Shown here: in pieces, positions 28,921 through 48,762 of the stretch | Layout: every line of letters starts with the position of its first letter | Position numbering within the stretch: position 1 is the first letter of the stretch | From: Escherichia coli | Lineage (GTDB): Bacteria; Pseudomonadota; Gammaproteobacteria; Enterobacterales; Enterobacteriaceae | Strand: one strand, 5' to 3' | DNA: 64,000 bases | NCBI RefSeq assembly: GCF_003018255.1 | Contig: NZ_CP027440.1 | Notes under the pieces: model-generated | Databases searched by the model: none | What the model was told of the DNA's origin: nothing | The model's input: only the letters and a program-made list of their open reading frames with translations | Program-made: the position numbers and the translations under genes

Positions 28921-31464
28921 ATGAGCAAAGTCAGACTCGCAATTATCGGTAACGGTATGGTCGGCCATCGCTTTATCGAAGATCTTCTTGATAAATCTGA
29001 TGCGGCCAACTTTGATATTACCGTTTTCTGTGAAGAACCGCGCATCGCTTATGACCGCGTACACCTCTCGTCTTACTTCTCTCACCACACCGCCGAAGAG
29101 CTGTCGCTGGTGCGCGAAGGCTTCTACGAGAAACACGGCATCAAAGTTCTGGTCGGCGAACGCGCTATCACCATCAACCGTCAGGAGAAGGTGATTCACT
29201 CCAGCGCCGGGCGCACCGTTTTTTATGACAAGCTGATCATGGCGACCGGTTCCTACCCGTGGATCCCGCCAATCAAAGGTTCTGATACTCAGGACTGCTT
29301 TGTCTATCGCACCATTGAAGACCTCAACGCCATTGAATCCTGCGCCCGTCGCAGCAAACGCGGTGCCGTTGTTGGTGGCGGCCTGTTAGGTCTGGAAGCC
29401 GCTGGCGCGCTGAAAAACTTAGGTATTGAAACCCACGTTATCGAATTTGCCCCTATGCTGATGGCGGAACAGCTTGATCAGATGGGTGGCGAGCAGCTGC
29501 GTCGCAAAATCGAAAGTATGGGCGTGCGCGTTCACACCAGCAAAAACACCCTTGAGATTGTGCAGGAAGGTGTCGAAGCGCGTAAAACCATGCGTTTTGC
29601 CGACGGCAGCGAACTGGAAGTCGACTTTATCGTCTTCTCTACCGGTATCCGTCCGCGCGATAAGCTGGCAACCCAGTGTGGTCTGGACGTTGCTCCGCGT
29701 GGGGGTATCGTCATAAATGATTCCTGCCAGACTTCCGATCCGGATATCTACGCCATCGGTGAATGCGCAAGCTGGAACAACCGTGTATTTGGTCTGGTAG
29801 CACCAGGCTACAAAATGGCGCAGGTCGCCGTTGACCATATTCTTGGTAGCGAAAACGCCTTTGAAGGTGCAGACCTTAGCGCCAAGCTGAAACTGCTGGG
29901 CGTAGACGTAGGCGGTATTGGTGATGCGCACGGTCGCACGCCTGGCGCACGTAGCTACGTTTACCTCGACGAAAGCAAAGAGATCTACAAACGCCTGATT
30001 GTCAGCGAAGACAACAAAACCCTGCTCGGTGCGGTACTGGTGGGCGATACCAGCGACTACGGCAACCTGCTGCAACTGGTGCTGAACGCTATCGAACTGC
30101 CGGAAAACCCGGATTCTCTGATTCTGCCGGCGCACTCAGGTAGCGGTAAGCCGTCTATCGGTGTTGATAAACTGCCGGACAGCGCGCAAATCTGCTCCTG
30201 CTTCGACGTCACCAAAGGCGATCTGATTGCAGCTATCAACAAAGGCTGCCACACCGTTGCGGCGCTGAAAGCTGAAACCAAAGCGGGTACTGGCTGCGGT
30301 GGCTGTATCCCGCTGGTCACTCAGGTACTGAACGCGGAACTGGCGAAACAGGGCATCGAAGTTAACAACAACCTGTGCGAACACTTTGCTTATTCGCGTC
30401 AGGAACTGTTCCATTTGATCCGCGTTGAAGGCATTAAAACCTTCGAAGAACTGCTGGCGAAACACGGCAAAGGCTACGGTTGTGAAGTTTGTAAACCGAC
30501 CGTCGGTTCGCTGCTGGCCTCCTGCTGGAACGAATACATTCTGAAGCCGGAACATACTCCGCTGCAGGATTCAAACGACAACTTCCTCGCTAACATCCAG
30601 AAAGACGGCACCTACTCGGTGATCCCGCGTTCTCCGGGCGGTGAAATCACCCCGGAAGGGCTGATGGCAGTAGGTCGTATCGCGCGTGAATTTAATCTCT
30701 ACACCAAAATCACCGGCTCTCAGCGCCTGGCGATGTTTGGCGCACAGAAAGACGATCTGCCGGAAATCTGGCGTCAGCTGATTGAAGCCGGCTTCGAAAC
30801 CGGTCATGCCTATGCGAAAGCACTGCGTATGGCGAAAACCTGCGTGGGTAGCACCTGGTGCCGCTACGGCGTTGGCGACAGCGTCGGCCTCGGCGTGGAA
30901 CTGGAAAACCGCTACAAAGGCATCCGTACGCCGCACAAAATGAAGTTCGGTGTCTCTGGCTGTACCCGTGAATGTTCAGAAGCTCAGGGTAAAGACGTGG
31001 GTATCATCGCCACCGAAAAAGGCTGGAACCTGTATGTTTGCGGTAACGGCGGCATGAAACCGCGTCATGCGAATCTGTTGGCAGCGGATATCGATCGCGA
31101 AACGCTGATCAAATATCTCGACCGCTTCATGATGTTCTACATCCGTACCGCCGACAAACTGACGCGTACCGCGCCGTGGTTAGAAAACCTCGAAGGTGGC
31201 ATCGATTACCTGAAAGCGGTGATCATTGACGACAAACTGGGGCTGAACGCACATCTGGAAGAAGAGATGGCGCGCCTGCGTGAAGCGGTAGTGTGTGAGT
31301 GGACTGAAACGGTCAATACCCCGTCTGCGCAGACTCGCTTCAAACACTTCATCAACAGCGATAAGCGTGACCCGAACGTGCAGATGGTGCCAGAGCGCGA
31401 ACAGCACCGTCCGGCAACGCCGTATGAACGTATCCCGGTAACTCTGGTGGAGGACAACGCATGA
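28921..31464 (+). CDS. nirB: NADH-dependent nitrite reductase large subunit
   Basis: 847-aa with N-terminal FAD/NAD Rossmann (RLAIIGNGMVGHRF), BFD-like [2Fe-2S] and siroheme/4Fe-4S domains. Confidence 0.98.
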   Translation: MSKVRLAIIGNGMVGHRFIEDLLDKSDAANFDITVFCEEPRIAYDRVHLSSYFSHHTAEELSLVREGFYEKHGIKVLVGERAITINRQEKVIHSSAGRTVFYDKLIMATGSYPWIPPIKGSDTQDCFVYRTIEDLNAIESCARRSKRGAVVGGGLLGLEAAGALKNLGIETHVIEFAPMLMAEQLDQMGGEQLRRKIESMGVRVHTSKNTLEIVQEGVEARKTMRFADGSELEVDFIVFSTGIRPRDKLATQCGLDVAPRGGIVINDSCQTSDPDIYAIGECASWNNRVFGLVAPGYKMAQVAVDHILGSENAFEGADLSAKLKLLGVDVGGIGDAHGRTPGARSYVYLDESKEIYKRLIVSEDNKTLLGAVLVGDTSDYGNLLQLVLNAIELPENPDSLILPAHSGSGKPSIGVDKLPDSAQICSCFDVTKGDLIAAINKGCHTVAALKAETKAGTGCGGCIPLVTQVLNAELAKQGIEVNNNLCEHFAYSRQELFHLIRVEGIKTFEELLAKHGKGYGCEVCKPTVGSLLASCWNEYILKPEHTPLQDSNDNFLANIQKDGTYSVIPRSPGGEITPEGLMAVGRIAREFNLYTKITGSQRLAMFGAQKDDLPEIWRQLIEAGFETGHAYAKALRMAKTCVGSTWCRYGVGDSVGLGVELENRYKGIRTPHKMKFGVSGCTRECSEAQGKDVGIIATEKGWNLYVCGNGGMKPRHANLLAADIDRETLIKYLDRFMMFYIRTADKLTRTAPWLENLEGGIDYLKAVIIDDKLGLNAHLEEEMARLREAVVCEWTETVNTPSAQTRFKHFINSDKRDPNVQMVPEREQHRPATPYERIPVTLVEDNA

Positions 31465-31787
31465 GCCAGTGGAAAGACATCTGCAAAATCGATGACATCC
31501 TGCCTGAAACCGGCGTCTGCGCGCTGTTAGGTGACGAACAAGTAGCAATTTTCCGCCCGTATCACAGCGATCAGGTGTTTGCGATCAGCAACATCGATCC
31601 GTTCTTCGAGTCCAGCGTGCTGTCACGCGGGCTGATTGCGGAACACCAGGGCGAGCTGTGGGTCGCCAGCCCGCTGAAAAAACAGCGTTTTCGCTTAAGT
31701 GATGGCTTGTGCATGGAAGACGAACAGTTTTCCGTCAAACATTACGAAGCACGAGTGAAAGACGGCGTGGTGCAGCTGCGCGGTTAA
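31461..31787 (+). CDS. nirD: Nitrite reductase small subunit
   Basis: 108-aa Rieske-like; ATGA overlap with nirB stop. Confidence 0.95.
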   Translation: MSQWKDICKIDDILPETGVCALLGDEQVAIFRPYHSDQVFAISNIDPFFESSVLSRGLIAEHQGELWVASPLKKQRFRLSDGLCMEDEQFSVKHYEARVKDGVVQLRG

Positions 31788-31797
31788 TGTTTTAACG

Positions 31798-31822
31798 GGA
31801 GGCGCAATGCCTCCCCTTTTTG
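31798..31822 (+). terminator. Intrinsic terminator/attenuator after nirD
   Basis: gggaggc-gcaat-gcctccc followed by ttttt. Confidence 0.6.
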
Positions 31823-31913
31823 CATGGTCCTGTAATGACCTTCGGTATATTGCAGGACATTTTTTAAACTTTTTGTTTTATTTTTTTGTTTTTATTTTTT
31901 AAAGGATAATCAA

Positions 31914-32720
31914 ATGTTTACAGACACTATTAATAAGTGTGCGGCTAACGCTGCGCGCATTGCACGCCTGTCGGCAAATAACCCGCTCGGCTTTTGGGTC
32001 AGCTCCGCCATGGCGGGCGCGTATGTGGGTCTTGGGATCATCCTGATTTTCACGCTCGGTAATTTGCTCGACCCGTCCGTACGTCCTCTGGTGATGGGCG
32101 CGACCTTTGGTATCGCCTTAACGCTGGTCATTATTGCTGGTTCTGAACTGTTCACCGGACACACCATGTTCCTCACCTTTGGAGTGAAAGCGGGCACTAT
32201 CAGCCACGGGCAAATGTGGGCAATCCTGCCGCAAACCTGGCTGGGTAACCTGGTTGGTTCCGTCTTTGTTGCCATGCTCTATAGCTGGGGCGGCGGTAGC
32301 CTGCTGCCGGTAGATACCAGCATCGTTCACTCCGTCGCGCTGGCTAAAACCACTGCACCGGCAATGGTACTGTTCTTCAAAGGTGCATTGTGTAACTGGC
32401 TGGTTTGCCTGGCTATCTGGATGGCGCTGCGCACTGAAGGGGCGGCGAAATTTATCGCTATCTGGTGGTGTCTGCTGGCATTTATCGCGTCCGGCTACGA
32501 GCACTCCATCGCTAACATGACGCTGTTCGCCCTCTCCTGGTTTGGCAACCACAGCGAAGCCTACACGCTGGCGGGTATTGGTCATAACCTGCTGTGGGTG
32601 ACGCTGGGTAATACTTTATCAGGTGCCGTATTCATGGGATTGGGTTATTGGTATGCTACGCCGAAAGCGAATCGTCCGGTTGCGGACAAATTTAATCAAA
32701 CTGAAACAGCTGCCGGTTAA
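31914..32720 (+). CDS. nirC: Nitrite transporter (formate/nitrite transporter family)
   Basis: 268-aa polytopic membrane protein; FNT-family fold by memory. Confidence 0.95.
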   Translation: MFTDTINKCAANAARIARLSANNPLGFWVSSAMAGAYVGLGIILIFTLGNLLDPSVRPLVMGATFGIALTLVIIAGSELFTGHTMFLTFGVKAGTISHGQMWAILPQTWLGNLVGSVFVAMLYSWGGGSLLPVDTSIVHSVALAKTTAPAMVLFFKGALCNWLVCLAIWMALRTEGAAKFIAIWWCLLAFIASGYEHSIANMTLFALSWFGNHSEAYTLAGIGHNLLWVTLGNTLSGAVFMGLGYWYATPKANRPVADKFNQTETAAG

Positions 32721-32738
32721 TTACTAAGGGGTTTTTAC

Positions 32739-34112
32739 GTGGATCATTTGCCTATATTTTGCCAATTACGCGATCGCGACTGTCTGATTGTCGGCGGTGG
32801 TGATGTCGCGGAACGCAAAGCAAGGTTACTGTTAGACGCAGGCGCTCGCTTAACGGTGAATGCATTAGCGTTTATTCCACAGTTCACCGCATGGGCAGAT
32901 GCAGGCATGTTAACCCTCGTCGAAGGGCCATTTGATGAAAGCCTTCTCGACACCTGCTGGCTGGCGATTGCTGCGACGGATGATGACGCGCTTAACCAGC
33001 GCGTCAGTGAAGCCGCTGAAGCTCGTCGCATCTTCTGTAACGTGGTCGATGCGCCGAAAGCCGCCAGCTTTATTATGCCGTCAATTATTGACCGCTCACC
33101 GCTAATGGTCGCGGTCTCCTCTGGCGGCACCTCTCCGGTTCTGGCGCGCCTGTTGCGCGAAAAACTCGAATCACTGCTGCCGCTGCATCTGGGCCAGGTA
33201 GCGAAATACGCCGGGCAATTACGCGGGCGAGTGAAACAACAGTTCGCCACGATGGGTGAGCGTCGCCGTTTCTGGGAGAAATTGTTCGTTAACGACCGCC
33301 TGGCGCAGTCGCTGGCAAACAACGATCAGAAAGCCATTACTGAAACCACCGAACAGTTAATCAACGAACCGCTCGACCATCGCGGTGAAGTGGTGCTGGT
33401 TGGTGCAGGTCCGGGCGATGCCGGGCTGCTGACACTGAAAGGTCTGCAACAAATTCAGCAGGCAGATGTGGTGGTCTACGACCGTCTGGTTTCTGACGAT
33501 ATTATGAATCTGGTACGCCGCGATGCTGATCGCGTTTTCGTCGGCAAACGCGCGGGATACCACTGCGTACCGCAGGAAGAGATAAACCAGATCCTGCTAC
33601 GGGAAGCGCAAAAAGGCAAACGCGTGGTGCGGCTGAAAGGCGGCGATCCGTTTATTTTTGGCCGTGGTGGCGAAGAGCTGGAAACACTGTGCAACGCGGG
33701 TATTCCGTTCTCGGTGGTTCCGGGTATTACCGCAGCTTCTGGTTGCTCTGCCTATTCGGGTATTCCGCTCACGCATCGCGATTATGCCCAGAGCGTACGC
33801 TTAATTACCGGACACTTAAAAACCGGTGGCGAACTGGACTGGGAAAACCTGGCGGCAGAAAAACAGACGCTGGTGTTCTATATGGGGTTGAATCAGGCCG
33901 CGACTATTCAGCAAAAGCTGATTGAACACGGTATGCCTGGCGAAATGCCGGTGGCAATTGTCGAAAACGGAACGGCAGTCACGCAGCGCGTGATTGACGG
34001 TACACTCTCGCAGCTGGGCGAACTGGCGCAGCAAATGAACAGTCCATCGCTAATTATTATTGGTCGGGTTGTTGGCCTGCGCGATAAATTGAACTGGTTC
34101 TCCAACCATTAA
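32739..34112 (+). CDS. cysG: Siroheme synthase (multifunctional)
   Basis: 457-aa: N-terminal dehydrogenase/ferrochelatase part and C-terminal SAM methyltransferase part ([18 protein letters not shown]). Confidence 0.97.
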
Positions 34113-34120
34113 TTTAACCC

Positions 34121-34146
34121 GGGCCAGAGAATTCTGGCCTTCTTAA
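34121..34146 (+). terminator. Hairpin after cysG
   Basis: ggccag-agaatt-ctggcc followed by ttcttaat. Confidence 0.45.
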
Positions 34147-34358
34147 TGACTCTTTTTATATATTCAGCAAATAAAACATAACCCCTTAATAAATATTATC
34201 TGCTAATGGGTTATATTCACCGTTACAGCGACTTACAAAATTAAGCCATTCACTCACTGACGCTAATTAAATATTCCTGTATCGTTCTTAATGAGCAGTC
34301 CGCTTATATTCATATAAACAATAAATATTAACCAATATATAATACATAGGGAATGTAA

Positions 34359-34526
34359 ATGAACAAATTTATTGAAGTTACACTGGTAGGTGCGGTACTG
34401 GCTACGTTAACTGCATGTACTGGTCATATTGAAAACCGTGATAAAAACTGCTCTTACGACTACCTGCTGCACCCGGCAATTTCTATTTCTAAAATCATTG
34501 GCGGTTGCGGTCCTACTGCACAGTAA
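34359..34526 (+). CDS. yhfL: Small lipoprotein YhfL
   Basis: Absent from the ORF track (55 aa): MNKFIEVTLVGAVLATLTACTGHIENRDKNCSYDYLLHPAISISKIIGGCGPTAQ with lipobox LTAC. Confidence 0.75.
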   Translation: MNKFIEVTLVGAVLATLTACTGHIENRDKNCSYDYLLHPAISISKIIGGCGPTAQ

Positions 34527-34566
34527 GTCTCTGACTGAAAGCGGCTAACACCGGTTTAATTGCCTG

Positions 34567-34600
34567 ACGCCCTCGGGGTTACCCGAGGGCGTATTTATTT
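34567..34600 (+). terminator. Intrinsic terminator after yhfL
   Basis: gccctcggg-gtta-cccgagggc followed by gtatttatttctg. Confidence 0.6.
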
Positions 34601-34632
34601 CTGCATTCTTTTCGAAAACATCATGCACAAGA

Positions 34633-35718
34633 TTAAATACTGGCAATACTCTCACGCAAAATCCGCAGCACCGTCTCTTCACCGCTGCGATTTGGGTTAA
34701 TACGAATCGCGTAATGTTCGAGTTGCGGATTCGCCTGGCGAAACGTTCCGGAAAGTCGATAAAAAAGTGGCGGAATTTCATATTTCGACTCTGCACCAAC
34801 CGGGTAAGGCAAGGCACCGCGCTTTTGCGCCTCTTCCAGCACTCTGGCGGCAATCGGCTGATGAAACTCGACAATCAACACTTTCGACTGCGCATTGGCA
34901 ATCACCGCGCTTTTCACTTCCGCCACTGCGCCACCGTTAAGTAAAGCCAGCAACCGTTCAGATACCCCCGCCTGCACCGCGTGCATCACTGGCGCAAACA
35001 CCAGCCCACGCAAGACTTCCAACGCCTGAGCGCCCTGAATCTGGCTGCCGCCGGAGTAGAGCGTGGCGCGAATACGGTTAATAACATCAGCATCGCCTAC
35101 CACCGCGCCAACACCCTCTGGCCCAAATAGCTTGAAGCAGGAAAATGTCGAGACATTCGCCCCGCATTCACAGCCGATTCGCGCTACCTTCATCACCGCA
35201 TAGTTGTCATCGGTTAACGCTGGAACACCTGCCGCGCGCAACGTTGCTAGCACGTCTGCCAGCACATAGCGGTCCTGCGGCTGCTGGCGCGTATGCTGCA
35301 CCAGCGCCGCATCCGGTTGTTGCGCTTCAATGATTTGTTTAAGCGCCGACAGATCATTGAAATCAGCCGTAATGAGCGTTAGCCCCATCTGCTCAATAAT
35401 AACCCGTGTCGTCGGGTAAACAGGCGCGTCATGCACCAGAAGACGCTGCCCCGGTATGAGCAAAGCTGCCAGCGCCGCACGGATCGCGCCAGTACCCGCG
35501 CCCTGTACCAGCGCCGCGGCCTGTGAGTGAAACGCGTCAGCCAGCACCTGTTCCACACGCTGGGTAATGCGCGGTTGATTCAGTCCCGGCGTTAATCCCA
35601 AATCACCGCAGGTAAGAAATTCGCTACCAGGAAAATGGCGGCAAATCGTGTCCACCAGCGCAAACTGCTTTTGCTGCGCCTCAATAATCGTCAGGCTTTG
35701 CAGAGGAAACGTCTTCAT
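34633..35718 (-). CDS. yhfS: Uncharacterised putative PLP-dependent enzyme YhfS
   Basis: 361-aa soluble protein; last gene of the yhfZ-to-yhfS minus-strand cluster; fold assignment from memory, not sequence-proven. Confidence 0.85.
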   Translation of the reverse strand: MKTFPLQSLTIIEAQQKQFALVDTICRHFPGSEFLTCGDLGLTPGLNQPRITQRVEQVLADAFHSQAAALVQGAGTGAIRAALAALLIPGQRLLVHDAPVYPTTRVIIEQMGLTLITADFNDLSALKQIIEAQQPDAALVQHTRQQPQDRYVLADVLATLRAAGVPALTDDNYAVMKVARIGCECGANVSTFSCFKLFGPEGVGAVVGDADVINRIRATLYSGGSQIQGAQALEVLRGLVFAPVMHAVQAGVSERLLALLNGGAVAEVKSAVIANAQSKVLIVEFHQPIAARVLEEAQKRGALPYPVGAESKYEIPPLFYRLSGTFRQANPQLEHYAIRINPNRSGEETVLRILRESIASI

Positions 35719-35729
35719 AGGTGCCTTCC

Positions 35730-37034
35730 TTAAGCCGGAACGAACAGGCCAAGCCAGTAAAGAACATTCAGCAGAATACCGGTGATCATTACTGCCACGA
35801 CCGGTGCCGCCATTTTCTGTACCGGACGGCCCAGGGATTCGTTGAGGAAGTAAATGGCAACTGCGATAGAAAATCCGGTATAACCCGCCATTTTAATTGC
35901 TGCGAAAATCGAACCGACCAGCAACGCCACTTCCATCAGCATATTCATGGCGTTACGGATGTTATCCGACGCATTACGCACCGACGGGTAGCGCCCCAGC
36001 CATTTGCCGATCGAACGAAGCAGCAGGACTTCCGCCGAAATAACCACTGCGCCTAATACCGCTGCAACCATCGGATTCGGCGAGAGATAGCCCACCGCAT
36101 AAACAAAGGTAAAGCCCGCAACTGCATACACACCCGTTGCTAACGCGGTGGTGGCAATCAACGGCACAAACCCCAGTCCGCGCATGAATTCTGCCAGAGC
36201 CGCCTGATTAATCAGCGTTTGCGATTGTTCCGGCGTTACGCCTGCGGAATATGCTTTCTCCAGTGTGAAGATCGAAACTTCGCTACCAGCAAAAATCTTC
36301 ATGCTGGCAACGGCGGCAATCAGCGCCCCGACAATAGCGATATACGGTAAGTTTTTGATAATCCGTGACGTGCGTTCTTCAAACACCGACATACCGCTGG
36401 CATCGATATCATTTTCATCACGATGACGCAGGTCATGAGTTATTGCGATCCCCAGCAGCATCACCATGCCAATAAAGATTTCGATGGATTCAGGGTTAAG
36501 ATGTGGGAAATAGCGCACGACGACCACACGGGTCATCAGTACCACCACGGCGGCGATCAGACTTTGCTTCCAGCCAAACTGGTAGAAAATCGCCACCAAC
36601 GGGAACAGTGCAAAAGCTGAAACCACCGGCGAGCTTAATTCCCCCAGGCTACCTAATACATCCACCGGTAGCGCGGTCAGCAGCTGGTTTACCGGTAACA
36701 GGCAAGTAAGGATCAACACGCCCCAGATAGCGCCAAGACCAAACGCCATCAGGCTGTTTATCGCCAGTACGCCGAGGATATCGGTAGGAAGAAAGAGTAA
36801 CCATGCGTTGAGCAGTCCGGTTTTCAGGGTAAAAGAGATCCCCACCGAAGCCACAAAACCAATGCTCAGACCAAAAGCGATACTCCCCGCCTCGCGACGG
36901 TTCATATAGCCTTCAATCAGTTGCGGCAGGATCGGGCGGATACCGTCATGAAAAACGGCCGCCGAGCGATGCGCCAGAAGCGATGTCATACCCGTCAGGC
37001 ACGCCACCACGATAATCTGAATATACAGATCCAT
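35730..37034 (-). CDS. yhfT: Uncharacterised polytopic inner-membrane protein (putative transporter) YhfT
   Basis: 434-aa, highly hydrophobic with multiple predicted TM helices. Confidence 0.85.
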   Translation of the reverse strand: MDLYIQIIVVACLTGMTSLLAHRSAAVFHDGIRPILPQLIEGYMNRREAGSIAFGLSIGFVASVGISFTLKTGLLNAWLLFLPTDILGVLAINSLMAFGLGAIWGVLILTCLLPVNQLLTALPVDVLGSLGELSSPVVSAFALFPLVAIFYQFGWKQSLIAAVVVLMTRVVVVRYFPHLNPESIEIFIGMVMLLGIAITHDLRHRDENDIDASGMSVFEERTSRIIKNLPYIAIVGALIAAVASMKIFAGSEVSIFTLEKAYSAGVTPEQSQTLINQAALAEFMRGLGFVPLIATTALATGVYAVAGFTFVYAVGYLSPNPMVAAVLGAVVISAEVLLLRSIGKWLGRYPSVRNASDNIRNAMNMLMEVALLVGSIFAAIKMAGYTGFSIAVAIYFLNESLGRPVQKMAAPVVAVMITGILLNVLYWLGLFVPA

Positions 37035-37045
37035 AGTCGTGCCTT

Positions 37046-37399
37046 TTATTTCAGATGGTTAATCAGCATCGGAATCGCGTGTTCGACGTGCTCAACGGAA
37101 AGCCCAAACGCCACTTTCCCTTCGGCGATCATTTTGGCGATATGTTCGTCTTTCGCTTTAATGCCTGGTTTGGCAATGGTGCAACTTTTGTTATAGCCAA
37201 TCACCGCGATGGCAATCGACAATGCCGCGCCCGCACCGGTATTACACGCGCCGATGTAGTAATCCAGTTGCCCGGATTTGACTTTCATTGCCGCTTCCAT
37301 GTCGTTGTGAATGAAAACTTCAAAACAGCCAGGAGCCGTCGCTTCAATGGTTTTTTTAATCTGCTCACGCTGTAAGCCTGCAACACCAATCTTTTTCAT
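37046..37399 (-). CDS. yhfU: Uncharacterised protein YhfU
   Basis: ATG at 37397-37399 (MKKIGVAGLQREQIKK..., 117 aa) with AGGA SD; the longer 130-aa ORF would overlap php by 29 nt. Confidence 0.8.
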   Translation of the reverse strand: MKKIGVAGLQREQIKKTIEATAPGCFEVFIHNDMEAAMKVKSGQLDYYIGACNTGAGAALSIAIAVIGYNKSCTIAKPGIKAKDEHIAKMIAEGKVAFGLSVEHVEHAIPMLINHLK

Positions 37400-37409
37400 G
37401 AGTCTGTCC

Positions 37410-38288
37410 TTATTGGAAAAATTGAGAGGGAGTTTCACGTAACATCACATCCACATCGGCCTGACTGAATCCTGACTGGCGCAATTGCGGAATAAAGGTG
37501 GTCAATAAATAGTCATAGCCATAACCACCGTTGGCTTTTAAATGGGAGCGGCGCGTAATATCCATCGACAGCATGACGCGGTTAAGCAAACCTCGGTCAC
37601 GTAGCGCGTGGAGCATCGCAATGCGCTTTTCGTCCGGGTAGTAACTGTTCTTACCGATGGTGTCGAACTGCACATACGCGCCGAGATCGATCATCTTCAC
37701 AATGTTGTCGAGGTTGTCTTTCAGATCGCAGTGACCAACGGTGACGCGCGAAAGATCAACTCCGTGGGCTTGCAGTAGCGCCAGTTGTTCCAGCCCCATG
37801 GTGCTAAAAGAGGTATGCGTGGAGATCGGGCGTCCGGTCTGGTTATGCGCCAGCGCGGCGGCAATAAATACCTTCTCTTCCAGCGGCGTGATTTTTCCTT
37901 CGCTGGAGCCTATCTCCGCGATGATCCCGGCTTTCAGCTCCGTGCCATCGATACCCTGTTCAATTTCATCGACCATCTCTTGCGCCAGTTCCTGCACGCT
38001 GCGGGTCGCCACATGTTCCGGGAAAAACGCGTCCTGGTAATAACCGGTACAGGCCACCACGTTGATCCCGGTTTCGCGCATTACATCGAGCATAAATTGC
38101 GCATTGCGCCCCATGTAACGGTTGGTCATCTCAATCACATTACGCACGCCCTGGGCCATCAGGTCGTTCATCTCCTGGCAAATGAACGCATACTGATCAA
38201 GGCGGCAGTCCACGTTGTTTTTAAAGCCGGAGAGATCAATATGCAGATGCTCATGGGCGAGGGTGTAGCCCGTCGGATCAAAACTCAT
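37410..38288 (-). CDS. php: Phosphotriesterase homology protein (amidohydrolase superfamily)
   Basis: 292-aa [23 protein letters not shown]... with HxH metal motif. Confidence 0.9.
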
Positions 38289-39511
38289 AGGGTGTCTCCT
38301 GCAAACCGGAGGGAGGAAAGAAAAGAGCGACCATTTTGTGGCGGTGGCGCGCGGAAAAATTCACATACGGTAGCCCCCACATCAGAAAGCGTGGTGAGCA
38401 CACCAAGCTGCGTAGCGACCATCCCTTGCTGATAAACCAGCACTGGCACCACTTCGCGGGTATGGTGGCTGTGACCAATGGTCGGATCGTTACCGTGATC
38501 CGCCATCACGACCAGGCAATCATCTGGCTGCATCGCCTCAATAAGCCGGGCAAGGTTACGGTCAACGACCTGCAAACGTTCCGCATAACGTGCGACGTCT
38601 TCTGCATGACCAGCGAGGTCGGTTTCCTGGATATTGGTACAAATAAACGCCGTCGGATGGGTGTTAAATTCGTTGAAGGTGATATCCATAATCCGCTGGC
38701 TATCCACCAGGTTTTGCCAGCTCACGCCATAAGGATTACTGGCAATATCCGCCACTTTCCCCACCAGCACGGTTGGTACGCCCACTTCATACAGTTTTTG
38801 TGGCACCTGCACTTTTTCATCGACGCCGTAGCCCATATGCACGACCTGGAAGCCGTTGTCATAAGCGCCAGAACGCGGCGCATTGATGCCAATAAAGCGC
38901 CCTTCTTTGCTTTCTGCGGCATCGAGGATGCGCTGGCTGTCGGTTAACAGGCCACCAAATGTAATGACCCGACCGACCTGTACCTGCTCACGCACGATAC
39001 GACCAATTTTGATTGCGTCGTCAAAAGAGATCACAGAGAGATTGGCGGTGATGTTATAGACCTGACCTAAATCCGCCTCGAGATTATCGCCAATCGCAAC
39101 CGCCTGATTGACCCACAGAAATTGCAGATCATCGCCACGGCGCTCCACCTGCCAGTCAGCGTTAAGTAATGCTTGCTCAACACGGTCAATCACATCGCGA
39201 AAGGGCATCCGTAGCGGCGGTAACGGGCGCGTGCCTAAAATTTCCTGATGCCCCATAAAGGTATCGCCACCTTCATGTTGCAGCTCTGCCACGCCCCAGG
39301 TTGCGGAGTCTGACGGCTGCATATCTCCAGGCGCATAACCTAATGCGTTGATTAGCCCCATTTTCTCCAGCATTGGTAGCTGCAAATGCGGCAACTGGCT
39401 CAGGATGTGACCACAGGTATTTGCCCCGGCATCCTGCGGACGCACCAACGTGACATCTTTCATTGCCCCTACGCCAAAGCTATCAATCACTAACACCACA
39501 AATCGCGCCAT
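38285..39511 (-). CDS. yhfW: Uncharacterised phosphopentomutase-like / metalloenzyme-superfamily protein YhfW
   Basis: 408-aa [17 protein letters not shown]... and ...[21 protein letters not shown] (DeoB-like metal site); 4-nt overlap with php. Confidence 0.85.
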
Positions 39512-40674
39512 TACGCCCCCAGAGAGTTTCCAAGACTGTCATAACGACCGACGATTTCTGGTTCGCCACGGTGAATACCGGACAGCAACACCACATCGCT
39601 ACGGGTGACAAAAATCTGCGTGCGAAAACAGAGCACTACTGCACTGCTTACCGGAAACTCGCCTGCCAGCGGCAGGGTGTAGTCGATACTGCTGTCATCC
39701 ACAGTTTTGAGATTGGTTTCAGTAATCTTTTGATTTTCTGGCGTAAACACCAGCGCATGTTGCGCGTGACCACGACGGTAGTAACCGCCGCCGTAGCAGT
39801 AGCTGTCGCCACGAAAATGATGGGAGATTTCACTTAACCAGAGCATCGCGATACGTTCAGGCTGATCGCCCTGCTGGTTTGCCGGAATCGTCCCCGTCAG
39901 CGCATGACCGGGTTCGGCATGAGTCACACCGTATTCCGCCAGCAATGGCAGCGAAGTGCAGCTGGTCGCAGAAGGTGCGTTCAGTTGCTCAATCGCAATA
40001 CCAGATTTCGCCAGTTGATCCCGTGCCTGTATCAGCGTGTGAAGATTCGGTGTCGGCAAAACTTTCCCGGCAGCCTCATCCCAAAGCAGGCAAGGGAAAT
40101 GGGTTAGTCCGGCTAAATGCAGCCCCGGCAGTTTCTTAATATCAGCAACCACCTCGTGCAGCGAATGCTGTACAAAACCGCTCTCCTGCCCCGGATAAAG
40201 AAAATCATCGTCGCTATAAACTTTGAGCAGCACAGACTGCACACGTCCGGCCTTCACCGCTGCTGCAGAAACTTCCCGCGCTTTATCGAGAGTAAACACG
40301 GTGATGACGTCAGTTCCCTGTGCAACGGCGTCAGAAACCTGGTGACAAGGGATTTGCACCAGATGCCCCTGATGCGCCAACGGCAGACCGGCGCGGCGCA
40401 TGACCCGCGCCTCTTTGTAATCCACCGCCACAATGCCGCTGTAGCCCAGTGCCAGAAGTTTTTCCGCCAGCCACGGATTACGGCCAAACTGCTTGGTCAT
40501 CAGATACAGTTCAATGCCGTAAAGTCGCGCCGTCTCAATCAGCCGCTTACCGTTTTCCAGTATCTGATCCACATCGATCACCCAGCTGTCCGGGGCGATC
40601 TTGCCCTGCTGCCACAAACTTAGTGCGGCGGAAATCAGCGCCGGGTTCTGGCGTTTCAATGCTTCTACAAACAT
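39511..40674 (-). CDS. yhfX: Uncharacterised alanine-racemase-fold PLP-binding protein YhfX
   Basis: 387-aa; fold-type III PLP barrel by memory ([13 protein letters not shown]); 1-nt overlap with yhfW. Confidence 0.85.
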
Positions 40675-40757
40675 CTTGTTGCCTCGTTTCTGTTCCTTGA
40701 ATTAAATATTCATTTTTCTGAATATTTAGATTATGCGACGTGGATTTGTCGGGAGCT

Positions 40758-41120
40758 TCAAACCTCTTCGTTAGCAGCCATCCATAATCCATAAAGATTA
40801 GCCAGCAAATAGCCTTCTTCACACGGCTTAACTTCCAGTGCGAATTCCTTCAACAACACCTGATGCAATTGCACAACGGCTTGCCAGTGGCTGGATTGCG
40901 CCAGCTCTGCCAGCAATTCGTCATCCAGCGGCTCTATTTCTTCACCACGGCGACTGCGCATCAGTGCGCTCGCCATATGTGTCATCGCCATCATTCCTTG
41001 CTCGCTGCGCACCGGTAGATGACACTCTGTTTCCAGTACGTTGACGACCTGCATCATGCCTTTGCAGATGTCCTTATCAATAACGCCTGCCTCACAAAGC
41101 AGGTTGAGTCTGGTTTCCAT
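40758..41120 (-). CDS. yhfY: Uncharacterised small protein YhfY
   Basis: ATG at 41118-41120 (METRLNLLCEAGVIDKD..., 120 aa); the 160-aa ORF-track version would overlap yhfZ. Confidence 0.75.
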   Translation of the reverse strand: METRLNLLCEAGVIDKDICKGMMQVVNVLETECHLPVRSEQGMMAMTHMASALMRSRRGEEIEPLDDELLAELAQSSHWQAVVQLHQVLLKEFALEVKPCEEGYLLANLYGLWMAANEEV

Positions 41121-41136
41121 TTCAGATGCCTTTCGT

Positions 41137-42042
41137 TTAATAACTCGGTTCCTGTTCCCCACTGACCACTCGTTGTTGATGGGCAAGCAGGGCCTGTTTA
41201 TCAACAACTGCACGCAGCAATTGTTGCATTGGGTAATCATCGACTCGCGTCAAAACTACGGCTTCGGTGGCCTGTAAAAATCGCGGATCGTCTGTGAGCG
41301 GCGTCGCTTCTAATCCCAGCATGGTCAGTTCGTTTTCCGCCACCACGTTCCAGATCACCGCATCAACATCGCCTTTAACAATGCGTTGTAAACTCTCGTG
41401 ATAAGAGAGATCGACTCGTTCCACATCACTATCGCCAAAAAAGACATCGGTCATGATTTTCTGATCCGCCGAACGGTTATCCAGCCCCACGCGATTCACG
41501 TTTGCGGACTCGCCTTTACGGCAAATCAACTGGTGCTCGCCAACGTAGGTGTGCGGCCCCAACTCCAGCGCGAGGCATAACCCTTTTTGCGTGAGATAAC
41601 TTTCCGCCGCCAGTCGGGAAACAACCGCCATGTCATACACGCCGTTAAGTAAACACTCCACGCGAATATCCGCGCCGCGCATGTGCGCATAGTAAAAAGG
41701 AATACCATCAAACTGAGCTTTCAATCCGCTCGCCAGGCCTTCGTACAAACGGGTATAGGGCAAGGGCATCGCGCACACCACATTGTTGATATCCACATGA
41801 CTCAGCAATGCTTTGTTATCCATTTCCACCAGATAACTGCCATTACGCCCACGGCGTTCTATCCGTATCGCTCCGCTTGATTCCAGCGTTTTCAACGCGG
41901 CCTGCGTCAGGCCAACGGATGAACGGCATTCAGTTGCCAGTTCATCTATGGTTTTCAGTCGATTACCGCACTTTTCACCCAACAAATAACGGGCCAGTGT
42001 CGTGATGACGACGCCTTCTTTTTTGATAAACGTTCGACGCAT
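41137..42042 (-). CDS. yhfZ: Putative HTH transcriptional regulator YhfZ
   Basis: 301-aa with N-terminal winged-helix-like segment (LARYLLGEKCGNRLKTIDELATECRSSVGLTQAALKTLESSGAIRIERRGRNGSYL). Confidence 0.8.
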   Translation of the reverse strand: MRRTFIKKEGVVITTLARYLLGEKCGNRLKTIDELATECRSSVGLTQAALKTLESSGAIRIERRGRNGSYLVEMDNKALLSHVDINNVVCAMPLPYTRLYEGLASGLKAQFDGIPFYYAHMRGADIRVECLLNGVYDMAVVSRLAAESYLTQKGLCLALELGPHTYVGEHQLICRKGESANVNRVGLDNRSADQKIMTDVFFGDSDVERVDLSYHESLQRIVKGDVDAVIWNVVAENELTMLGLEATPLTDDPRFLQATEAVVLTRVDDYPMQQLLRAVVDKQALLAHQQRVVSGEQEPSY

Positions 42043-42160
42043 AATAAATTTTCAGTAAATTGAATATTTATATCTTCAGGAATTTGAAGATAAGGCGCAA
42101 CAGCGAGATGTGGAAACGGCGAGGCACTTCACATTTTTTCGGATTATTGCAAATGAGGAT

Positions 42161-42186
42161 AAAAAAACCGGGTTTCCCCGGTTTCA
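42161..42186 (-). terminator. Intrinsic terminator downstream of trpS
   Basis: Minus strand reads ccgggg-aaa-cccgg followed by ttttttt. Confidence 0.55.
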
Positions 42187-42208
42187 GAGTGATGATAAAA
42201 GCAAAATT

Positions 42209-42299
42209 GCCTGATGCGCTACGCTTATCAGGCCTACATTTCCTTGCAATATGTGCATTACTTTGTAGGCCGGATAAGGCGTTCACGCCGCATCCGGCA
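42209..42299. repeat. BIME: two inverted REP elements
   Basis: gcctgatgcgctacgcttatcaggcctac (42209-42237) and gtaggccggataaggcgttcacgccgcatccggca (42265-42299). Confidence 0.8.
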
Positions 42300-42331
42300 T
42301 GAACAAAGCGCAATTTGCCAGCAATAGTGAA

Positions 42332-43336
42332 TTACGGCTTCGCCACAAAACCAATCGCTTCGTACACCGCTTTCAGCGTACGAGAAGCGTGTGCACTGGC
42401 TTTTTCCGCGCCATCTTTCATCACCTGTTGCAGGAAGGCTTCGTCATTGCGGAAACGGTGATAGCGTTCCTGCAATTCAGTCAGCATACCGGAAACGGCA
42501 TCAGCCACTTCGCCTTTCAGATGACCATACATCTTGCCTTCGAACTGTTTTTCCAGTTCCGGGATGCTCTGGCCCGTTACCGCAGAAAGGATATCCAGCA
42601 GGTTGGAAACGCCCGCTTTGTTCTGCACATCGTAGCGAACTACCGGCGGCTCGTCGGAGTCAGTGACCGCACGTTTGATTTTCTTCACTACCGATTTCGG
42701 ATCTTCCAGCAGGCCGATAACGTTATTGCGGTTATCGTCAGACTTGGACATCTTTTTGGTCGGCTCCAGCAGCGACATTACGCGCGCGCCAGATTTCGGA
42801 ATAAACGGCTCCGGCACTTTAAAGATCTCGCCATACAGCGCGTTGAAACGCTGGGCGATATCGCGGCTCAGTTCCAGGTGCTGTTTCTGGTCTTCACCGA
42901 CCGGTACCAGATTAGTTTGATACAGCAGGATGTCCGCAGCCATCAGCACCGGATAGTCAAACAGACCAGCATTGATGTTCTCGGCATAACGCGCAGATTT
43001 ATCTTTAAACTGCGTCATGCGGCTCAGTTCGCCGAAGTAGGTATAGCAGTTCAGTGCCCAGCCTAACTGTGCATGTTCCGGCACGTGGGACTGAACAAAA
43101 ATGGTGCTTTTCTCAGGATCGATACCACAAGCCAGATACAAGGCCAGCGTATCCAGCGTCGCTTTACGCAGCTTCTGTGCATCCTGGCGCACGGTGATCG
43201 CGTGTTGGTCAACGATACAGTAAATGCAATGATAGTCATCCTGCATGTTTACCCACTGACGCAGCGCACCCATGTAGTTACCAATGGTCAATTCACCTGA
43301 GGGCTGTGCGCCACTAAAAACGATGGGCTTAGTCAT
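42332..43336 (-). CDS. trpS: Tryptophan--tRNA ligase
   Basis: 334-aa class I aaRS with TIGN (HIGH-type) and KMSKS motifs. Confidence 0.97.
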
Positions 43337-44087
43337 TTTTCGATTCCTGATTTTCGCTATGCGGAAGCCCTAATGCGGGCAGAAGGTCATTTATAGACTG
43401 ATAAATTACATCAGGCTGGCTGAGATCGATAGCCTCGCCGTAGTTATATCCGTAGGTTAAGCCAACTGATGGGCAACCTGCCGCTTTTGCTGCCTGAATA
43501 TCATTGCGTGAGTCGCCAACAAACAGCATCTGTTGTGGGGCAATTCCCATCCGCTCAGCCACCAGTAACAGCGGGTCCGGATGCGGTTTTTTGTTTTGCA
43601 CATCATCACCGCCGATAACCACGCTGAAGTATTTGGCGATATCTAAGGCTTCGAGCAGCGGCGCGACGAACGGCGTCGGTTTGTTGGTGACCAGGCCTAG
43701 CGGCAGGCCTTTAGCCTGCAATGCGCCCAGCGTATCGGCAACGTGCGGGAACAAAAACGTCCCCTCTTCGGCAACCTCGCCATAGTAGCGATCGAACAGT
43801 TTACGCAGAATACGTACCTGTTCTTCTGCCGGAATGTCGTCATCAACGGGCGGTTTACCCATTGTTTTACGCAGAGTCGCACGTTCCTGACGCGCCCAGG
43901 TCAATGCGCGCTCCATCAGAATATCTGCGCCGTTACCAATCCAGGTAATAACGCGTTCTTCACCTGCGACAGGCAACTCCAGCGCATACAGCGCCATATC
44001 TACCGCAGCAGCAAGACCGGGTGCACTGTCAACCAGCGTACCGTCGAGATCAAAAGCGACGCCGCGAATATCTTCAAACTTATTCAT
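43329..44087 (-). CDS. gph: Phosphoglycolate phosphatase (HAD superfamily)
   Basis: 252-aa with [10 protein letters not shown] motif; overlaps trpS start by 8 nt. Confidence 0.93.
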
Positions 44088-44757
44088 GACTTACCTTTGC
44101 CAGTTCACTGCGCATTTCATCAATGACTTTTTTGTAGTCTGGCTGGTCGAAGATTGCCGAACCAGCAACAAACATATCCGCGCCCGCCGCAGCGATTTCG
44201 CCAATGTTGTTCACCTTCACGCCACCGTCCACTTCCAATCGAATGTCAAAGCCAGACTCGTCGATACGACGACGTACTTCGCGCAGTTTATCCAGTGTTT
44301 GAGGAATGAAAGACTGACCGCCGAAACCAGGATTGACGGACATCAGCAGGATCACATCCAGCTTATCCATCACGTAATCCAGATAACTCAGAGGTGTCGC
44401 CGGGTTAAATACCAGACCCGCTTTACAGCCATTTTCTTTAATCAGTTGCAGCGTGCGGTCAACATGCTCGGAGGCTTCTGGATGAAAGGTAATGATGCTG
44501 GCACCAGCGGCAGCGAAATCAGGCACAATGCGATCGACGGGTTTCACCATCAGGTGTACGTCGATAGGGGCGGTAATGCCGTAGTTACGCAAGGATTTCA
44601 GCACCATTGGCCCAATAGTCAGATTGGGAACATAGTGGTTATCCATGACGTCAAAATGCACGACATCAGCGCCAGCTGCCAGGGCTTTTGCGGTATCTTC
44701 ACCCAGGCGGGCAAAATCAGCCGACAGAATTGAGGGGGCAATCAAATACTGTTTCAT
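44080..44757 (-). CDS. rpe: Ribulose-phosphate 3-epimerase
   Basis: 225-aa [22 protein letters not shown]...; overlaps gph start. Confidence 0.96.
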
Positions 44758-44774
44758 CCGCTTCTCCTTGAGAA

Positions 44775-45611
44775 TTATTTTTTCGCGGGTGAAACGACTC
44801 CTGGTTTGTACAAAGCCAGCAGTTCGTCCACCTTTTTACGTGTGCCGCCGTTGCTGCTTATACTGCGTCGAACTTTGACGACATGCAATTTTGCGCGCTG
44901 ATACCACTCACGCGTTAACATCGTATCGTGATTGGAGATCAGCACTGGAATATGGCGATCAACCAGACCTTCGGCGATCTCCGCCAGATGCGCTTGTTGT
45001 TCAAGCGTAAAACTGTTTGTGTGATACGCCGTAAAGTTGGCGGTCGCAGACAGCGGCGCATAAGGCGGATCGCAATAGACGACGGATGCATCATCTGCGC
45101 GCGCCATGCTATCGGCGTAAGACTCACAGTAGAAAAAGGCATTCTGCGCTTTTTCAGCGAAGTGATACAACTCTGCTTCCGGGAAATAGGGTTTTTTGTA
45201 GCGGCCAAACGGCACGTTAAACTCACCGCGCAGATTGTAACGACACAGACCGTTGTAACCGTAGCGGTTCAAATATAAAAACAGTACCGCCCGACGGAAC
45301 GGATCCTGGCTTTTGTTGAACTCTTCGCGGAACTGATAGTAAACCTCGGCGCAATTTGTTTCGGGAACAAACAGCTCGCGTGCGGCCTGTACGTACTCAT
45401 CAGTACGCATCTTCACAATGTTATAGAGACTGATCAGGTCGCTATTGATATCGGCAAGGATATAACGAGAAAAGTCGGTGTTGAGAAACACCGACCCGGC
45501 ACCTACAAAAGGCTCAACCAGACATTCGCCCTTGGGCAAATGCCGTTTAATATCATCAAGCAGGGGATACTTGCCCCCTGCCCACTTCAAAAAAGCGCGA
45601 TTTTTCTTCAT
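44775..45611 (-). CDS. dam: DNA adenine methyltransferase (GATC)
   Basis: 278-aa with DPPY catalytic motif ([10 protein letters not shown]). Confidence 0.96.
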
Positions 45612-45717
45612 GCTGACTAACTAATTACACCTTCTCCGGCTGTGGAGAAAGCTCCGACAGCATCCAGCGCTTCAGGCAACTCCCGCGATGATAAACCATT
45701 GCGGGAGATAACCTTGA

Positions 45718-47004
45718 TTACTTCAGATCGGCCTGTACCTGACGCAGCGGTTTCGCCCACGGGTTTTTGGCCTGGACATCGGCTGGCAATGTAGATACCG
45801 CTTTTTTCGCCTCTTCTTTCGAAGCGTACACGCCAGAAACCAGGACATACCACGGCTGACCATTACGCGTCGTTTCATAGACAACGTAGTTTTTCAGATT
45901 CTCTTTCTTCGCCCAACCGTTCAGGTTGTCGTAGTTAGAGGAACTGCTCAGCTGCAGAGTGTAATGGCTGGACGGTGCCGATTTCAACGAACCAACATTA
46001 CCTGCGGTCTTCCCTCCAGCGGCTGGTGTTGCCGTGGTTTGCGCCGGGGATGCCGTCTGTACTGGAGCCGTAGTCGCCGTCTCTTTTGGTGCTGGCGTAG
46101 AAGTCGCAGCCGGTGCCTTCGTGCTTGCCACAGGAGCAGCTGGTTCAGTACGCTTCGGCGTCTGTGCTACCGGCTTCGGCTCCGTTTTCACGGTTGCTTG
46201 CGGTTTTTTCGGTTCAATCACCGCCTGCTGGCGAGCTGGACGCGTAGTGGCCGGACGTTCAGCGGTTTGCGTTTTCGCCGTGTCACGCGATGCATTGCCA
46301 TTGCGAACAGGCGCGACCGTCGCGGGTTCAGTCGGCAACGTGGAATTGACCGCCACATTATTCAACTGTTGCTGATTTTGTGGCTGGGTCAGCGCATTGT
46401 TCAGGTCACCCTGCACTTCAACACGTTGTTGACCATCCGTTGCCGCCGGGGTTTGCCCTTGAGTCGGCGTAGAAGAGATCGGCGGCAGAGAAACATCCTG
46501 CTGAGTATTTTCCGCAGACGTGGTTCCCGGCGCTGGCTGCACGCCATTCGCCTGATCGGTCGCATTGCCAGCAAGATCAATACTCTTCTCGCCAGACGCG
46601 GTTTGATCGCTGGAAGAGGTCGAGGGGGCTTTTAGCGCAGAACCGATACCGATGATCAACAGCAGGAGAACCAGAATGCCGACGCCCATCATCATATACT
46701 GACGAGAAGCGGGTTTACTGGCTGCTTTTTTGCGCTTACGTGGACGACGCTCTACGCGCTCTTCATCCACGGTTTCATCTTCGGATTCGTCAATTTCTTC
46801 TTCGAGTTCCGGTTCCTCATTGCGCTCTTTTTGCGCACGAGTCGGACGGCGATCGTCAGTGTCATCAAGTTCAATATCATCAAAATTGATCTGCGGTTCG
46901 CCACGTTCAGTACGCTCAGAACGTTCAGAAGATTGACGAGAACGACCAGTACGACGATCGCTGGGATCGGGTTTCAGCTCGTCTTCTGGTTTGAATTCAT
47001 CCAT
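45718..47004 (-). CDS. damX: Cell division protein DamX (SPOR domain)
   Basis: 428-aa: charged N-terminus, one TM helix, long P/T/A/Q-rich low-complexity region, C-terminal SPOR-like domain. Confidence 0.9.
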
Positions 47005-47095
47005 TTAACACCCCACTAAAAGGTTAATGCTTACCACGTTGCAATTAACCTGAAGCTAATAGACCGCTTGATAAGCGGCCTGACCTTTCTTGTTG

Positions 47096-48184
47096 TTACG
47101 CTGATTGACAATCGGCAATGGCGTTAAGAACAAGCTCGTGCGAAACGCCGCTGCGAACTTCACTCTTACCAATTGCCAACGGAAGAATTAAGCGCATCTC
47201 TCCCGCAAGGACTTTCTTGTCACGCAGCATATGCGGTAAATACGCCTGCGCAGACATTTCGCGCGGCCCATTGACCGGTAACCCAGCCCGCGTGAGCAGG
47301 GTTATAATACGCTGCGTTTCGGCAGAACTAAACTGCCCGAGACGTTCCGACGTCCGCGCCGCCATCACCATACCCGCAGCAACCGCTTCACCGTGTAACC
47401 AATTGCCATACCCCATTTCAGCTTCAATGGCATGACCAAAGGTGTGTCCCAGATTCAGTAAAGCACGTAACCCGGTTTCGCGCTCGTCGGCGGCGACAAC
47501 TTCTGCCTTCAGTTCACAACAACGGCGAATACAGTACGCCATTGCCGGACCGTCCAGACGCAACAACGCATCCAGATTCTCTTCCAGCCAGTTGAAAAAC
47601 GCACCGTCAAGAATAATGCCGTATTTGATGACTTCTGCCAGCCCCGACGCTAACTCACGCGGGGGAAGCGTTTTCAGACAGTCGAGATCCACCACCACTG
47701 AAGCAGGCTGGTAGAACGCGCCAATCATGTTTTTACCGAGGGGATGGTTGACCGCAGTTTTGCCGCCAACGGAGGAATCGACCTGCGACAGCAATGTCGT
47801 CGGGACTTGAATGAAACGTACACCGCGCTGATAACTCGCCGCCGCAAAGCCGGTCAGATCGCCCACTACGCCGCCGCCAAGCGCCACCAGCGTAGTATCG
47901 CGACCATGCGGCTTTTGTAACAACGCCGTAAAGACGGTATCGAGTACAGCCAGGCTTTTATACTGCTCGCCGTCAGGGAGGATAACGCTATCGACGTTAA
48001 CACCCGCCTGTTCAAGTACGCCGCGGACCTTATCGAGATACAGGGGAGCCAGGGTTTCGTTGGTAACCAACATGACCTGCTCGCCCGATTTCAGCGGTAA
48101 GAATGAAGCTGGTTCATTAAACAAACCAGATGCGATGGTAATTGGGTAACTACGTTCCCCGAGAGTAACGACAATCCTCTCCAT
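47096..48184 (-). CDS. aroB: 3-dehydroquinate synthase
   Basis: 362-aa [24 protein letters not shown]... Confidence 0.96.
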
Positions 48185-48240
48185 AACGCGACATCCACCT
48201 TAATTACTGTACCCGCAGACGAGTGTATATAAAGCCAGAA

Positions 48241-48762
48241 TTAGTTGCTTTCCAGCATGTGAATAATCTGGTTTGCAACCACTTTAGCGCTTTGATCATC
48301 AGTACGAATGGTCACGTCGGCAATCTCTTCATACAGCGGATTGCGTTCATTGGCCAACGCTTCCAGAACTTCACGCGGCGGTGTTTCAACGTGCAGCAAC
48401 GGGCGTTTTTTATCACGCTGCGTGCGTGCAAGTTGCTTTTCGATGGTCGTTTCAAGATAAACGACAACGCCACGAGCGGAAAGACGGTTACGCGTTTCAC
48501 GGGATTTCACAGAGCCGCCGCCAGTAGCCAGCACAATACCCTGTTTCTCGGTCAACTCATTGATGACCTTTTCTTCGCGATCGCGGAAGCCTTCTTCGCC
48601 TTCTAAATCGAAAACCCAGCCCACATCAGCTCCGGTTCGTTTCTCAATCTCTTGATCGGAATCGTAAAATTCCATATTGAGTTGTTGAGCTAACTGGCGC
48701 CCAATAGTGCTTTTTCCGGCACCCATAGGCCCAACCAGAAAGATATTGCGTTTCTCTGCCAT
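48241..48762 (-). CDS. aroK: Shikimate kinase I
   Basis: ATG at 48760-48762 ([25 protein letters not shown]..., 173 aa); the ORF-track 240-aa version is an upstream extension. Confidence 0.95.

Follow-up and report, generated by a model that had tools for sequence, protein, structure and literature searches.

The convergent yhfL-yhfS junction

The 64-kb stretch of Escherichia coli DNA analysed here (the window) carries yhfL and yhfS in convergent orientation on either side of a short intergenic junction, followed by the remainder of the yhfS-yhfZ cassette and by trpS. The features on which the analysis is based are the following:

34359-34526, + strand: yhfL, ORF including its TAA, encoding a 55-aa DUF4223 lipoprotein; left flank of the junction
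34527-34632, no strand: convergent yhfL/yhfS intergenic junction of 106 bp, the unoccupied frl site; found uninterrupted in 2,105 of the 5,426 complete E. coli genomes
34567-34602, + strand: intrinsic terminator of yhfL, with an 11-bp stem, a 4-nt loop and a T-rich tail
34603-34631, no strand: probable ancestral spacer of 29 bp, GCATTCTTTTCGAAAACATCATGCACAAG, at the place where a 5,242-bp frl segment stands in frl+ strains
34633-35718, - strand: yhfS, ORF of 361 codons including the stop, encoding a PLP-dependent aminotransferase-fold protein; right flank of the junction
34633-42042, - strand: yhfS-yhfT-yhfU-php-yhfW-yhfX-yhfY-yhfZ cassette, ORFs collinear with those of K-12
42332-43336, - strand: trpS, conserved right anchor of the variable interval

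The two flanking ORFs are annotated as yhfL and yhfS in matching RefSeq E. coli records. A preliminary description of this DNA had placed a gap of about 106 bp between both genes and a terminator hairpin past the yhfL stop codon. The coordinates of the gap proved exact (34527-34632), and the hairpin was located at 34567-34592, with 9 G-C pairs in its stem and the tail ATTTATTTCT. The fold of the 106-nt junction gave a z value of -3.3. A G+C-rich hairpin followed by a T run, as expected of an intrinsic terminator, was found at 34567-34602 on the + strand only, that is, for yhfL, and the - strand of the junction showed no terminator-like site for yhfS. The yhfL terminator is kept in frl- and frl+ alleles, as well as in E. 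albertii and E. whittamii.

The absence of a scar such as direct repeats, IS ends or a tRNA at the junction, also proposed in that description, was borne out by the searches. No direct or inverted repeats flanking the window junction were detected except for the terminator stem, no tRNA genes were present between positions 30000 and 40000 of the window, and no Rfam family scored above chance near the junction. A match to SgrS at 34188-34268 was discarded as a chance hit (12.7 bits and E = 0.66, with a gathering score of 37). Searches with FrlA, FrlB, FrlC, FrlD and FrlR by tblastn revealed no Frl homologues in the 64-kb window (best E = 0.04), and frl remnants, sought in the junction and in the rest of the window by tblastn and sensitive blastn, were not found either.

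Breakpoints of the frl segment and outgroup junctions

The annotated gene order in K-12 strain MG1655 is nirB-nirD-nirC-cysG-yhfL-frlA-frlB-frlC-frlD-frlR-yhfS-yhfT-yhfU-php-yhfW-yhfX, in agreement with the preliminary description, which had placed frlABCDR between yhfL and yhfS in K-12. Alignment of the window with the corresponding K-12 segment (L001) resulted in two collinear blocks, with window positions 29910-34602 matching L001 1-4692 and positions 34632-48698 matching L001 from 9935 onward. Between these blocks, 29 bp of the window (34603-34631) stand against 5,242 bp in K-12 (NC_000913.3 3,499,692-3,504,933), and frl is absent from the junction, as had been described. On the left, homology to K-12 stops at the end of the terminator tail, at the last T (34602); on the right, it is back one base ahead of the yhfS stop codon. 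Nucleotide identity to K-12 is 94.5% over yhfL and the sequence that follows it as far as 34602.

Identity between the window and K-12 was 90-96% across positions 34500-41999, corresponding to yhfS-yhfZ, with minima of 90.4% at 40000-40499 and 92.2% at 35000-35499. Further out, identity values were 97-99% in nirB-cysG and at least 99% in trpS-dam (range given for these outer parts, 97.5-99.6%). The yhfS-yhfZ cassette is thus unusually divergent within the species.

The K-12 insert starts with approximately 215 bp of upstream sequence that include the frl promoter/operator region, continues with frlABCDR and ends with approximately 150 bp containing a REP-type palindrome and a second G+C-rich palindromic repeat downstream of frlR (L001 9790-9925). 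REP copies were also observed between yhfZ and trpS, both in the window (42208-42300) and in K-12, and no support was found for a role of REP/BIME-type palindromes in the rearrangements of the locus. The insert encodes only frlABCDR, with no integrase, transposase or IS ends. No target duplications, att-type direct repeats or terminal inverted repeats were found either at the window junction or at the ends of the K-12 insert (L001 4693/9934), and composition gave no sign of foreign origin, the frl genes having 50-58% GC vs 51-59% for the flanks.

The 29-bp spacer has no recognizable counterpart within the K-12 frl interval: the best local alignment between both scored 20, a chance value when compared with shuffled sequences (19.6 ± 2.5). 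The first 15 nt or so of the K-12 insert are weakly similar to the spacer, so the insertion point is uncertain by about 15 nt. As the occupied allele contains no counterpart of the spacer, deleting frl could not have created this sequence.

To place the junction in a wider context, the neighbourhood of yhfL was scanned in one genome per species, mapped with K-12 proteins. Among the matches listed, which did not include E. fergusonii, E. marmotae or E. ruysiae, yhfL was followed directly by yhfS, without frl, in E. albertii, in E. whittamii and in a further Escherichia species-level genome (L027), with gaps of 108-115 nt. The same adjacency without frl was observed in four Citrobacter genomes, in Superficieibacter electus and in Enterobacter sp. 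ENT03. In other Enterobacter, and in Leclercia, Lelliottia, Pseudocitrobacter, Buttiauxella, Hafnia and C. youngae, yhfL converges straight on trpS, which is likely the basal layout. Sequences similar to yhfL (56-73% identity) also appeared on short contigs of metagenome-assembled genomes labelled Bacillota and Rickettsiales (L043 and L047); enterobacterial contamination of the bins is the most likely origin of these contigs.

Within Escherichia, the junction can be aligned base by base, including the 29-bp spacer, and its divergence rises with species distance. All frl- E. coli examined have a homologous spacer, and so do E. albertii, E. whittamii and L027. By its adjacency of yhfL and yhfS without frl, and by its homology to frl- strains and outgroups, the window carries an frl-negative, empty-site allele. 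As for the frl+ strains, the left breakpoint is common to K-12, E69 and O157:H7, and the right breakpoint to K-12 and E69. These shared breakpoints therefore argue for one insertion event.

Alleles of the junction in E. coli and their history

The frequency of the alternative arrangements was determined in 5,426 complete RefSeq E. coli genomes. A short contiguous yhfL-yhfS junction was present in 2,105 of them. The frlABCD genes were found in 3,300, always at 95% identity to K-12 or higher and in no case on a plasmid. Both sets add up to 5,405 of the 5,426 genomes; as these counts do not disprove an overlap between them, the contiguity of yhfL and frlA was used instead, and this junction, diagnostic of the canonical site, was seen in 3,293 of the 3,300 frl+ genomes. 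The K-12-type contiguous frlR-yhfS junction occurred in 2,943 genomes. Accordingly, frl away from its canonical site is essentially unknown in E. coli, and its presence elsewhere in the source genome, of which the 64-kb window was searched, is very unlikely given these species-wide counts. The short junction is the arrangement neither of K-12, whose site is occupied, nor of most E. coli. The presence/absence polymorphism postulated from the window is therefore real, with the refinement that it probably reflects an empty ancestral site and not a deletion.

In approximately 350 frl+ genomes, the locus has a third arrangement, without yhfS-yhfZ and with frlR next to trpS. In O157:H7 ATCC 43888 (L006 9150-15622) and in SCU-316 (L050), for instance, yhfL-frlABCDR are followed directly by trpS. 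Loss of yhfS-yhfZ in O157-type strains through recombination between REP copies was considered and found unsupported, as the sequences part just past the repeat and rejoin at the trpS stop codon. The frlD gene of ATCC 43888 has an internal stop and is annotated as a pseudogene. Some other frl+ strains, such as 3359 and NT1F10, carry IS1 inside frlA or between yhfL and frlA; these insertions represent independent events of inactivation or regulatory change at the frl operon.

The lineage of the window is rare among complete genomes. Identity of at least 99% over 22 kb (24000-46000) was reached by only 8 records, the best of them at 99.2% (JNE23-011 and JNE112863), most others being at about 98%; the best matches over this region are contiguous and frl-. 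A junction segment of 181 nt is identical in strain WP4-S18-ESBL-07 and near-identical in DG341-1. UTI89 and JJ1887 carry the same short junction, the sequence of the window being 93% identical to that of UTI89. This value and the best 22-kb matches, at 99.2%, set the window apart from typical B2 sequences; the Clermont markers used to type phylogroups lie outside the window.

A different empty allele was found in strain PEC178 (L049 1501-2860), whose left (244 nt) and right (466 nt) flanks are 100% identical to those of K-12 and enclose the ancestral spacer GCATTCTTTTCGAAAACATCATTCACAAG. The occupied K-12 allele and the empty PEC178 allele thus differ only by 5,242 bp vs 29 bp. The PEC178-type allele matched at 100% in at least 60 other genomes, many of which probably have B1-type STEC or livestock serotypes. 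Its existence implies that the frl polymorphism segregates outside B2-like groups too. The frl copies themselves diverge by 2-3% among E. coli, which suggests an old insertion; a single event of that age can hardly account for the complete identity of the flanks between K-12 and PEC178, unless homologous recombination later transferred one allele to the flank haplotype of the other. The simplest reading of these sequences is that either allele may have passed between backgrounds by homologous recombination in the flanks. Because of this identity, the history of the locus in phylogroups A and B1 is not simply vertical. Didelot et al. 2012 (PMC3505186) listed frl among the genes convergently common to EHEC lineages and absent from other B1 strains. 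Recombination in the flanks fits this remark, and also the raised divergence around the junction and in yhfS-yhfZ.

We estimate at about 85% the probability that the 106-bp junction of the window is the ancestral, never-occupied site, that a sub-lineage of E. coli acquired frl by a single insertion, and that the lineage of the window inherited the empty site vertically. Whereas the breakpoints, their sharing among frl+ strains, the spacer of the outgroups and the allele frequencies are direct observations, we infer the single origin and the vertical inheritance in this lineage. The polarity was deduced from outgroup comparison. Since the junction would be an ancestral unoccupied site, a scar is not expected in it. 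The opposite view, that this lineage lost frl by spontaneous deletion and that the junction is the resulting scar, could appeal to frl being the majority state in sequenced E. coli (3,300/5,426) and to the decay that the operon does undergo, as illustrated by the frlD pseudogene of ATCC 43888 and by IS1 in or near frlA. A deletion, however, would join sequences of the occupied allele, and the junction is not built only from such ends: it contains a 29-bp spacer that is missing there and that is homologous to the spacers of E. albertii, E. whittamii and L027. Furthermore, all frl- junctions examined have the same architecture, and we consider secondary loss very improbable. An assembly artefact or misjoin collapsing the frl region is next to inconceivable, given that 2,105 complete genomes carry this junction, as do three other Escherichia species-level genomes.

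It is also conceivable, although rather unlikely, that the lineage of the window descends from an frl+ ancestor and regained the empty allele from an frl- donor through homologous recombination in its flanks. In that case, the site would still be empty and of ancestral type, but the history of the lineage would be one of gain followed by loss. Such an exchange would be in line with the finding of the empty allele on two very different flank haplotypes, one of them identical to that of K-12, with the peak of divergence from K-12 near the junction and in yhfS-Z (90-96% vs 97.5-99.6%), as in a recombination-prone region, and with the convergent distribution of frl in EHEC and its absence from other B1 strains (Didelot et al. 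2012, PMC3505186). On the other hand, the flanks of the window are of the same type as those of other frl- strains outside A/B1 (WP4-S18-ESBL-07 and DG341-1), its best 22-kb matches are contiguous and frl-, and nothing in its lineage calls for an earlier frl+ state.

According to the preferred reading, a self-contained frl cassette, with its own promoter/operator, frlABCDR and trailing REP-type repeats, would have entered the yhfL-yhfS site once, replacing the 29-bp spacer that separates the yhfL terminator from the yhfS stop codon. The route of entry was probably illegitimate recombination or import from an enterobacterial donor. Homologous recombination in the flanks may later have spread the cassette and occasionally swapped either allele, and the lineage of the window would have kept the empty site by vertical descent from the Escherichia ancestor.

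The cysG-yhfL-trpS interval and fructoselysine use

The frl cassette is not the only variable element of this region. The yhfS-yhfZ cassette, too, varies as a block between yhfL and trpS: some genera of the Enterobacteriaceae have it and others do not, and it is absent in O157:H7. Four states of the cysG-yhfL-trpS interval were observed, with neither of the two cassettes, with yhfS-Z alone, with frl alone, or with the two together. In Citrobacter freundii M-21 (L045 4951-10165), frlABCDR lies between cysG and yhfL, upstream of the latter, and yhfL converges on trpS. A promoter/operator block is shared by the frl operons of E. coli and C. freundii M-21, with 84% identity over 55 nt. C. freundii M-21 was discarded as a recent donor, as nucleotide identity is only about 77%, the ordinary divergence between these genera, and the cassette stands on the other side of yhfL. 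It shows, nevertheless, that in a second genus this cassette has entered this neighbourhood as well, although at another position. Other inserts were observed in Superficieibacter (L016 and L017) and Intestinirhabdus alba (L010), with 6.1-7.5 kb between cysG and yhfL and, in one case among these genomes, 3.5 kb between yhfL and trpS; in the Superficieibacter genome L017, only a yhfZ-like gene is kept beside trpS.

These data indicate that the cysG-yhfL-trpS interval is a hotspot for metabolic cassettes in several genera. Chromosomal integration hotspots, reportedly described in E. coli by Touchon and colleagues in 2009, are places where accessory blocks recur between the same core genes. As in such chromosomal hotspots, frl, yhfS-Z and other inserts of 3.5-7.5 kb occupy the same interval in different lineages; unlike them, the boundaries here are devoid of tRNA, integrase, IS, direct repeats and GC deviation. 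In a similar way, the yhfL-yhfS site resembles the attachment site of a genomic island or prophage in offering occupied and empty alternatives at a fixed chromosomal position, but differs from a classical genomic island in that tRNA, integrase/transposase, IS ends, repeats and GC deviation were all tested for and are lacking. The REP-type repeats at the right end of frl could hint at a REP/RAYT-linked insertion mechanism. A broader proposal would be that of an old cross-genus hotspot in which cassettes are swapped without mobile machinery, with boundaries at terminators and stop codons, and in which flank recombination under diet-dependent selection keeps the frl alleles polymorphic, even in B1-like backgrounds; we regard this proposal as speculative and doubtful.

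The absence of frl observed here is a common and already published strain difference. The Frl pathway was defined by Wiame et al. 2002 and by Wiame and Van Schaftingen 2004, as these works are cited in PMC5996543 and PMC3505186. Fang et al. 2018 (PMC5996543) reported frl to be absent from B2/ExPEC strains, which were predicted to be unable to use fructoselysine and psicoselysine, and a 2025 preprint (10.1101/2025.09.14.675865) considers the lack of degradation of both compounds a hallmark of B2. The frl genes and the yhfL/frlA intergenic region are, in addition, recurrent adaptive targets in the mouse gut. The polymorphism described here involves the same locus and the same gene set as that of B2/ExPEC strains; the published work dealt with gene content and predicted growth, whereas the present analysis deals with the sequence of the junction. 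What is new with regard to the literature compared is the polarity, with an empty site that is probably ancestral and is common to sister species, together with the exact breakpoints, the empty allele on K-12-type flanks and the four states of the interval.

The frl operon allows E. coli to use the Amadori products of heated food as nutrients, and few metabolic differences between B2/ExPEC-type strains and other E. coli are as consistent as its absence. The source strain of the window, to be annotated as frl-negative at the canonical locus, would be unable to take up or degrade fructoselysine or psicoselysine via the Frl pathway. The polarity proposed here is a modest refinement of a known polymorphism; an ancestral empty site would reverse its usual wording, in that A/B1/E-type strains would have gained the pathway, instead of B2 strains having dispensed with it.
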